Of a DNA stretch of 5,793 nucleotides, positions 502 through 658 are shown piece by piece (the first letter of the stretch is position 1; every line of letters begins with the position of its first letter). The position numbers and the translations under genes are program-made. A model generated the notes under the pieces. That model made no database searches. It was given only the letters and a program-made list of their open reading frames with translations, and had not been told where the DNA came from. This DNA is from Escherichia coli (GTDB taxonomy: Bacteria > Pseudomonadota > Gammaproteobacteria > Enterobacterales > Enterobacteriaceae), in NCBI RefSeq assembly GCF_003334255.1, contig NZ_QOWU01000103.1; one strand, 5' to 3'.

Positions 502-658
502 GAGCGGGTAGGTTTGGGGTGATTTCCCGTGTTTCGTTTGGCAATGGTTTTAGCGTCTGTGTGTGAGTGGTGGTTGTGCTCGCCGCAGTCTCAATGACCG
601 AGCGTAGCGAGCGAATGAGCGAGGAAGCACCAGGGAACCGGAACGTGAACGGAGGCTC

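Follow-up and report, generated by a model that had tools for sequence, protein, structure and literature searches.

What does the intergenic region at 502-658 do in the stretch of Escherichia coli DNA analysed here (5,793 nucleotides, hereafter the window)? A preliminary description placed this region between the replication origin and a mobC-like gene, correctly, as a ColE2-type ori is located on its left and the minus-strand stop codon 659-661 on its right, and named a lagging-strand priming signal or a terminator as candidates for its function. The region was examined through its composition, its conservation among related plasmids, its predicted fold and its likeness to known priming signals. 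The features found are collected in Table 1.

Table 1. Features in and around the region 502-658, in positions of the window
Feature	Position	Strand	Basis or remark
ColE2-type replication origin	452..500	+	repeats, AGA triplets; directly after rep
CAGATAACA direct repeats, ori	456-464 and 473-481	+	repeat search
AGA triplets (primer sequence), ori	452, 457, 474	+ only	motif count
Hairpin AGCGCC-TGTA-GGCGTT + T7	481..501	+	6-bp stem, 4 GC pairs; terminator-like end of rep transcript
GT-rich spacer	502..561		between ori and putative priming signal; about 80% G+T; length kept, sequence not
Putative priming signal, whole	562-667	+	conserved block after spacer; core 576-630
5' flank, TGTGTGAGTGGTGG	562..575	+	alignments
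Core (ssiA homolog)	576..630	+	identity, covariation, ColE1 alignment
Mini-hairpin GCGTAGC, centre of element	602..608	+	matches GCG-N-AGC motif
3' tail, CAGGGAACCGGAACGTGAACGGAGGCT	631..656	+	moderately conserved; 74% mean identity among ColE2-like relatives
CTTACGCAC motif (CTTACGC)	657..665	+	~25 nt after core
mobC-like relaxosome accessory gene	659..1105	-	right neighbour of 502-658; ORF list

The plasmid and the setting of the region

The two ends of the window are identical over 77 nt (1-77 = 5717-5793), and the window therefore represents the complete plasmid circle of 5716 bp followed by this overlap. The rep gene starts at 5239 and runs across the circular junction to 452, and its product shares 73-86% identity with the initiators of ColE2-like plasmids, the value being 73.6% for a ColE9 colicin plasmid. 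The E. coli plasmid CP043022.1 (5718 bp, mobilizable, MOBQ, rep_cluster_2141) showed 100% identity over the queried segment 453-700. The window is a circular ColE2-like plasmid (Col156, MOBQ) of ~5.7 kb from E. coli.

The mobC-like gene likely starts with the ATG at 1105, which has GAGG 7 nt upstream and gives a protein of 148 aa, and not as the 177-aa ORF from 1192. A relative from Shigella sonnei carries a CDS of the same length as the re-started ORF (148 aa), annotated as 'conjugal transfer protein TraD', and the NCBIfam search returned no match for the mobC-like protein. With the start at 1105 the intergenic region behind it measures 171 bp, near the 178 bp of the oriT region of MOBQ4 plasmids, in which oriT lies within the mobC-mobA intergenic region (PMC6856555). 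A cargo block of low GC at 2383-4700 contains three ORFs, of 238 aa (hydrophobic segment, no family match), 190 aa (LysE/RhtB-type exporter-like, with a TIGR00949 match of E = 9e-17, far below cutoff) and 316 aa (weak CmoA-like methyltransferase match, E = 2e-6). The sequence GGTACGTACAAGAGGAGTTATGGTAAAT at 5056-5082, upstream of rep, resembles a cer-type XerC/XerD core site, as judged against the cer consensus. A cer-like site is carried by MOBQ42 (ColE2-like) plasmids (PMC6856555).

Origin and probable direction of replication

The ori of ColE2 is characterised by two CAGATAA repeats and a primer site (PMC3632715). The ColE2 Rep is a primase that makes the primer ppApGpA (PMC9743546), which is made at a fixed origin site and then extended by DNA polymerase I (PMC9743546, PMC3632715). 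Within 445-505 of the window, the + strand has three AGA triplets and the minus strand none. Since AGA is confined to the + strand, the leading strand would be of + sense and would grow rightwards into 502-658 with displacement of the + strand, a direction deduced from the primer sequence, as opposed to a mapping of replication. The right half of the ori is 87% identical among the ColE2-like relatives, which is below the value for the core 576-630 (98%). The hairpin at 481-501 overlaps the right edge of the ori, lies outside 502-658 and is largely kept in relatives.

Composition and coding capacity of the region

The preliminary description had found no convincing ORF in the region, and this was upheld. 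The coding reading of the ORFs 567..842 (+) and 591..713 (-) was rejected because a 1-nt indel in comparison with five relatives breaks these candidate frames and leaves no conserved frame. The G/T-richness reported earlier is confined to the left part, 502-577, where G+T amounts to 80% and is equalled by only 14 of the 5717 segments of 76 nt, and does not extend to 578-658 (46%). The region as a whole, with 62% G+T, ranks 405 among 5636 segments and is not unusual. The reiterated GAGCGA motifs are real, two of the four copies in the window being located at 609 and 617. The shorter GAGCG is found at 502, 600, 609 and 617 (four of 14 in the window), and the reiterations of GAGCGA/GAGCG cluster at 600-623, where these copies are alternative pairing partners within a conserved structured element and no loose repeat.

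The spacer 502-561 is 50-52% identical to each of the five ColE2-like relatives and has 23 invariant columns out of 60, with a short invariant GCAATGG at 541-547. A wider family for the spacer was rejected, as a search of 497-577 against plasmids returned only 17 near-identical records. Measured from the right ori repeat, the beginning of the core (GCTCGCCGCAG) is 105 nt away in the window and 106 nt away in the five relatives. These results suggested that 502-561 is mainly a length-constrained spacer.

A conserved block follows the spacer

The core 576-630 showed 98% mean pairwise identity and 52 invariant columns out of 55 in six ColE2-like plasmids, and the end of the mobC-like gene, to the right of the element, shares 34% identity with four of the five relatives. 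Poor conservation among relatives, which the preliminary description had taken as a sign against a function, is thus a property of the GT-rich left part (~50%) and not of the core (98%). The conserved block reads GTGCTCGCCGCAGTCTCAATGACCGAGCGTAGCGAGCGAATGAGCGAGGAAGCAC in the window and CCGCTCGCCGCAGTCGAACGACCGAGCGTAGCGAGTCAGTGAGCGAGGAAGCGG in ColE1. A GAGTGAG/GTGTGAG-like motif stands ahead of the core also in ColE1-type plasmids, the CAGGGAAC of the 3' tail is common to IncF copies, and the CTTACGCAC motif is present in ColE2-like, ColE1-like, Col(MG828) and IncF copies and missing from pUC-type vectors, being lost at the lac junction in the pUC-type sequences L052 and L078.

In the minus strand, the TAA within the CTTACGC motif is the stop codon of three unrelated genes downstream (in the window, and also in L007 at ~798, L010 at ~800 and L137 at ~1818), namely the mobC-like gene of the window with its TraD annotation, a 132-aa hypothetical gene and a 91-aa hypothetical gene. 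CTTACGC is also retained by the copies in ColE1, Col(MG828) and IncF plasmids, where no gene ends at it. A pairing of GTGTGAG in the 5' flank with CTTACGC in the 3' motif, seen by eye, was rejected as it does not hold in the pMB1-type or IncF copies. A Chi site was likewise rejected, AGTGGTGG at 566-573 agreeing with GCTGGTGG at only 6 of 8 positions.

Predicted fold of the presumed displaced strand

A consensus fold was calculated with RNAalifold from 21 distinct homologs. It pairs GTGCT at 576-580 with AGCAC at 626-630 as an outer stem, continues with the inner pairs 583:623, 584:621, 585:620, 586:619, 594:616 and 595:615 and includes a central 2-bp hairpin. In this fold, 99.3% of cells are paired and four pairs show compensatory changes. 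The covariation score, which draws on few clades and few independent events (probably 2-3), was reached by none of 500 shuffles, and the signal collapsed when the partners were slid by 1-3 columns. The outer stem occurs as GTGCT/AGCAC (ColE2-like, IncF), as CCGCT/AGCGG (ColE1, p15A, MG828, Pantoea) and as GCGCT/AGCGC (two ColE2-like plasmids including ColE9). As these versions do not track the similarity of the rest of the block, the stem must have changed independently at least 2-3 times. The classical AAGCGG hexamer is one version of the stem half, which reads AAGCAC here and is compensated in the stem.

The central site reads GCGTAGC in ten of the 21 homologs, GCGAAGC in six, GCGCAGC in two, and GCGGAGC, GCGTTAGC and ACGTTAGT in one each; the flanks GCG and AGC are kept in 20 of 21, with T, A, C or G as N and TT as NN. 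The mini-hairpin GCG-N-AGC is built of two G-C pairs and a sheared G-A pair. GCGNAGC/GCGNNAGC is known as an extraordinarily stable DNA mini-hairpin with a Tm of 70-76 C (PMC13037366). The window conforms to this motif, which comprises the heptamer GCG-N-AGC and the octamer GCG-NN-AGC, with GCGTAGC at 602-608. Furthermore, five sequences have G-T pairs at 47:70 (alignment columns), which would be C-A on the other strand, and GCG-N-AGC reads correctly on the + strand only. These G-T pairs, the directionality of the GNA loop and the occurrence of the phiX174 viral-strand motifs in the same sense indicated that the + strand is the structured strand.

The folding of 502-658 and of its sub-segments as DNA on both strands, a check proposed in the preliminary description, gave no significant z-score for the window copy, the values against shuffles being +0.77 and -0.47 for the + strand and -0.30 in a further folding. 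The minimum-energy fold of the window copy and of the ColE9-like copy is a rival local hairpin and not the consensus fold. This hairpin, which pairs 578-586 with 602-612, was rejected as the conserved structure because 89% of its cells are paired, it shows no compensatory change and it is broken in IncF copies. The nearest-neighbour parameters probably miss the special stability of GNA mini-hairpins. The support for a single-stranded secondary structure is therefore comparative, as opposed to the thermodynamic scores. The Rfam covariance models gave no match at gathering score anywhere in the window, and the control RNAI was recovered in ColE1 loci.

Homology to ssiA of ColE1

The core 576-630 aligned unambiguously with 1309-1362 of the ColE1 sequence (L003), the flanks being shared, and with the pMB1/p15A-type, Col(MG828), IncFIA and IncFIB copies, and BLAST gave 79% identity over query 95-176 to a ColE1 record. 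Rfam located RNAI on the minus strand of ColE1, and so its RNAII and its leading strand are of + sense. The core begins at 1311, which is 114 nt downstream of the RNA/DNA switch (GGAAAAA/CGCC) at 1197. The + strand of the window thus aligns with the displaced strand of ColE1, which means that orientation and distance match at two mechanistically different Pol I-dependent origins. The position of the ColE1 block presumably also agrees with the maps of the factor Y site of pBR322.

In ColE1, the extension of the RNAII primer by Pol I unwinds the DNA and exposes the n' pas/ssiA, which recruits PriA, and PriA then permits the loading of DnaB and DnaG and the priming of the lagging strand (PMC3167613, PMC3640518, PMC5778457). 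The ssiA is stated to be present in the pMB1-ori constructs of PMC3167613. In pUC-type sequences, pMB1 DNA stops 10 nt after the core and lac DNA begins. If those constructs share the pUC-type ori-lac junction, which is assumed from their description, ssiA would lie within 183 nt after the RNA/DNA switch, with the core at +122 to +173. The pUC-type junction, the statement on the constructs (with the junction assumed to be shared) and the factor Y maps together identify the ColE1 block as ssiA, and the element of the window is in this way homologous to an experimentally defined site. It lies on the displaced strand, as given by the primer sequence, within a few hundred nt of the origin.

These results together supported the lagging-strand priming signal among the earlier candidates, as the right two-thirds of the region are a homolog of the ColE1/pMB1 ssiA that lies on the presumed displaced strand at a ColE1-like distance from the origin. 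We propose, with a probability of roughly 0.85, that 502-658 consists of a spacer and a phiX174-type (n'-type, PriA-dependent) primosome assembly site, which would be the ColE2-family counterpart of the ColE1/pBR322 ssiA and active on the + strand. The homology of the block to ssiA, judged by sequence comparison, appears to us very highly credible, and from this homology, the conservation, the covariation, the strand and the spacing geometry we infer the recognition by PriA and the priming function in this plasmid.

Distribution across plasmids

A BLAST search of 453-700 against plasmid records (PLSDB) gave at least 5000 matching records. Among the matches listed, thousands beyond the ColE2-like plasmids share only query 121-191, corresponding to 573-643 of the window. 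The block is common to at least 5000 plasmid records that include ColE1-like, Col(MG828), IncFIA and IncFIB plasmids, and it was inspected in ColE1 itself and in ColE1-like, p15A-like, Col(MG828) (1.5-kb), IncFIA and IncF-type examples. The IncFIA copy is located downstream of ccdAB-resD and the IncF-type copy about 320 nt upstream of a gene for a RepB-family initiator. In ColE2-type plasmids of E. coli whose Rep is at least 66% identical (including ColE9), the block follows the ori repeat after about 95-105 nt, and in the ColE9 colicin plasmid of the ColE2 family after 94 nt. No recognisable copy was found in the ~700 nt of downstream flank in ColE2-type replicons whose Rep is at most 54% identical (Klebsiella, ETEC p58, pKPTCM-6, Aeromonas, Neisseria), which means that ColE2-type replication can do without the element. 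Rather than being universal in the ColE2 replicon, it is an accessory module of the enterobacterial subgroup.

A pattern scan of genome contigs gave 120 matches, mostly due to chance in GC-rich genomes or to cloning-vector contamination, with about a dozen useful natural copies. Small contigs in the non-enterobacterial assemblies of Paracoccus salsus (L052), a Candidatus Caldipriscus MAG (L078), Streptomyces marokkonensis (L066), Cutibacterium porci (L031) and Streptomyces chilikensis (L021) carry vector sequence of pUC type (pMB1 ori fused to lac), of p15A-like type or derived from F, which is most likely cloning-vector contamination.

Alternative explanations

The location of the region between two convergent genes would suit a termination zone for the rep (+) and mobC-like (-) transcripts, a weak + strand site is predicted at 515-529 (5-bp stem, tail TGTTTCGTTT) and the structured core could slow RNA polymerase. 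However, the good site, a strong hairpin with T7, lies at 481-501 ahead of 502-658, no site was predicted on the minus strand, and the three candidates in 380-1300 compare with 1.5 ± 1.3 expected. The weak site falls in the least conserved part, the conserved core is without a T-run on either strand, and many plasmids have the same core outside any convergent gene pair. The earlier remark that a clear hairpin terminator is absent was right for 502-658, inside which the weak 5-bp candidate was the only one predicted and a promoter scan gave no promoter; the terminator function offered in the same description is unsupported and seems to us very improbable. Even more remote is another priming or helicase-loading signal, be it a G4-type site, at which DnaG acts alone, or a hairpin with a DnaA box for the ABC primosome. 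Plasmids do carry such signals, DnaA boxes accompany the ColE1-type and IncF copies, and a dnaA box is known close to the n' pas (PMC3640518); but the homology is to the PriA-type site of ColE1 and not to G4-type origins, and no match to the DnaA box TTWTNCACA was found within 502-658 even with one mismatch, the nearest being at 695-703 and 1073-1081, so that the mark of an ABC primosome is missing from the region.

That the block has no function of its own and is a module junction or a recombination scar hitch-hiking between enterobacterial plasmids is hardly credible. The conservation of 98% and the compensatory changes in the stem beside a spacer of ~50% imply purifying selection on structure, the distance and orientation are conserved relative to two unrelated types of origin, and a role has been demonstrated for the ColE1 homolog (PMC3167613, PMC3640518). 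This outweighs the position of the block exactly at the border of the replicon and mobilisation modules, the completely different sequence to its right between relatives, the shared TAA at which three unrelated downstream genes end and the lack of the block in distant ColE2-type replicons. A role in conjugation, mainly or in addition, would be compatible with vegetative priming and not an exclusive alternative to it, and is possible, though we regard it as rather doubtful; the element would then prime the complementary strand of the transferred DNA in the recipient. A likely oriT was found at 1190-1253 in the mobC-mobA intergenic region, with the inverted repeats CATCCCTGA/TCAGGGATG at 1190-1198/1204-1212 and GTTTCTC at 1224-1230 paired with GAGAAAC at 1240-1246, directly followed by AGTGCGC at 1247-1253 on the + strand. 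We take AGTGCGC with its inverted repeat to resemble the nick region of the R1162/RSF1010 oriT. A nick in the + strand at this site would make the + strand, with the active sense of the element, the transferred one, and the plasmid is typed as mobilizable MOBQ with an arrangement as in the MOBQ4 plasmids (PMC6856555). Against this, both the nick site and the transferred strand are proposed from likeness of sequence, the element would reach the recipient near the end of transfer, it adjoins the origins of non-mobilisable vectors and of IncF replicons as well, and its fixed distance to the vegetative ori (105-106 nt in ColE2-like plasmids, 114 nt in ColE1) is better suited to a vegetative role.

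Proposed mechanism and implications

For the PriA-dependent assembly site proposed here, the following course of events is envisaged. The Rep primase would lay the 3-nt primer ppApGpA at the ori (452-500), and DNA polymerase I would extend it rightwards as the + sense leading strand. After ~100-180 nt, the displaced + strand would expose 562-667 in single-stranded form, which would fold into the outer stem 576-580/626-630, the inner pairs and the GCGTAGC mini-hairpin at 602-608 and in this state would resist coating by SSB. PriA would recognise the fold and, together with PriB, DnaT and DnaC, would load DnaB and DnaG, upon which discontinuous synthesis of the lagging strand would start and the fork would be handed over to Pol III. 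Pol I would copy the spacer 502-561 before anything else, and the final Okazaki fragment, running back to the ori, would later be made on it as template. Deletions of ssiA in ColE1 are reported to do no more than lower the copy number, and by analogy the priming signal is likely to be dispensable in this plasmid too.

PriA-type primosome assembly sites have been known since the early 1980s. The kind of element found here is thus already known, and the current understanding is unchanged by the result, which places a probable lagging-strand start signal, of a kind that ColE1, ColE2-like and F replicons carry as a standard accessory, in an unexplained part of the map of a common small E. coli plasmid. 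The same priming module would operate at a near-equal distance from two mechanistically different Pol I-dependent origins, one primed by RNAII and the other by a Rep primase. Thousands of plasmid records contain the 55-nt block with no feature label; its sequence together with a simple structure suffices to recognise it.

What is mildly new is the consensus structure made up of stem and mini-hairpin. It could be, and we put this forward tentatively from the sequences compared, that enterobacterial PriA-type sites have a common structure, a freely covarying closing stem and an invariant central GCG-N(N)-AGC mini-hairpin with all four bases at N, a motif that the phiX174 site contains as well. 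If the recognition by PriA or the exclusion of SSB depends on the mini-hairpin, this motif would be a specific recognition determinant, and the structural definition would give a usable annotation model for the sites that are unlabelled in at least 5000 plasmid records. A review of mini-hairpins from 2026 makes no mention of primosome assembly sites (PMC13037366), and the older mutational literature on the pBR322 site may already hold the definition by mini-hairpin and stem.

Comparison with known primosome assembly sites

The closest known system is the ssiA of ColE1/pMB1 (pBR322, pUC), also called n'-pas, the effector site of factor Y on the template of the lagging strand, with ~80% identity over the 55-nt core. 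Both have the same orientation with respect to the leading strand and a comparable distance from the start point (105 nt in the window and 114 nt in ColE1), and both have the same predicted fold with GCTCGCCGCAG on the 5' side, GCGTAGC in the centre and GAGCGAGGAAGC on the 3' side. The GTGTGAG of the 5' flank and the CTTACGC of the 3' motif are also common to them. They differ in the origin upstream, which is a Rep-primase ColE2 ori in the window and an RNAII/RNase H origin in ColE1, and in the outer stem, GTGCT/AGCAC in the window, which is without the classical AAGCGG, against CCGCT/AGCGG in ColE1. They also differ in the neighbourhood, as no DnaA box adjoins the window copy or the other ColE2-like copies whereas ColE1-type copies have one upstream. 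The box in ColE1-type plasmids, TGTGGATAA, is placed ~30 nt upstream of the core (L003 1270-1278), and the one in IncF-type plasmids, TTATCCAC, ~55 nt downstream of it (L005, L013, L048, L054).

The site near ori-2 of mini-F/IncFIA and near repFIB of IncFIB has the same GTGCT/AGCAC outer stem, the CAGGGAAC tail and the same architecture, and these IncF copies, too, adjoin a replication origin: the IncFIA copy comes after resD, and the copy in an IncF-type plasmid precedes the RepB-family gene. They differ by a 4-bp hairpin in the middle, GGGC-GAA-GCCC, which contains the GCGAAGC mini-hairpin, by the DnaA boxes that follow and by an iteron-type origin. A primosome assembly site was reportedly described in mini-F by Imber and colleagues in 1983 (PNAS 80:7132).

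The F-G intergenic site of phiX174 has, on the viral (template) strand, GAGTGTGAG, a GAAGCGG...CCGCT stem and GCGAAGC in the same sense as the motifs of the window, and its GAGTGTGAG resembles the 5' flank 562-575. It differs in having no alignable homology overall, in the reversed order of the stem halves (AGCGG first and CCGCT second) and in belonging to a phage genome and not to a plasmid ori. At this site PriA recognises a hairpin region in SSB-coated single-stranded DNA (PMC5778457). Finally, the title of Nomura et al. (1991; Gene 108:15-22), as cited in PMC6856555, lists ColE2 among the plasmids in which ssi signals were found experimentally, and the block of the window is very probably the same element as this ssi of ColE2.
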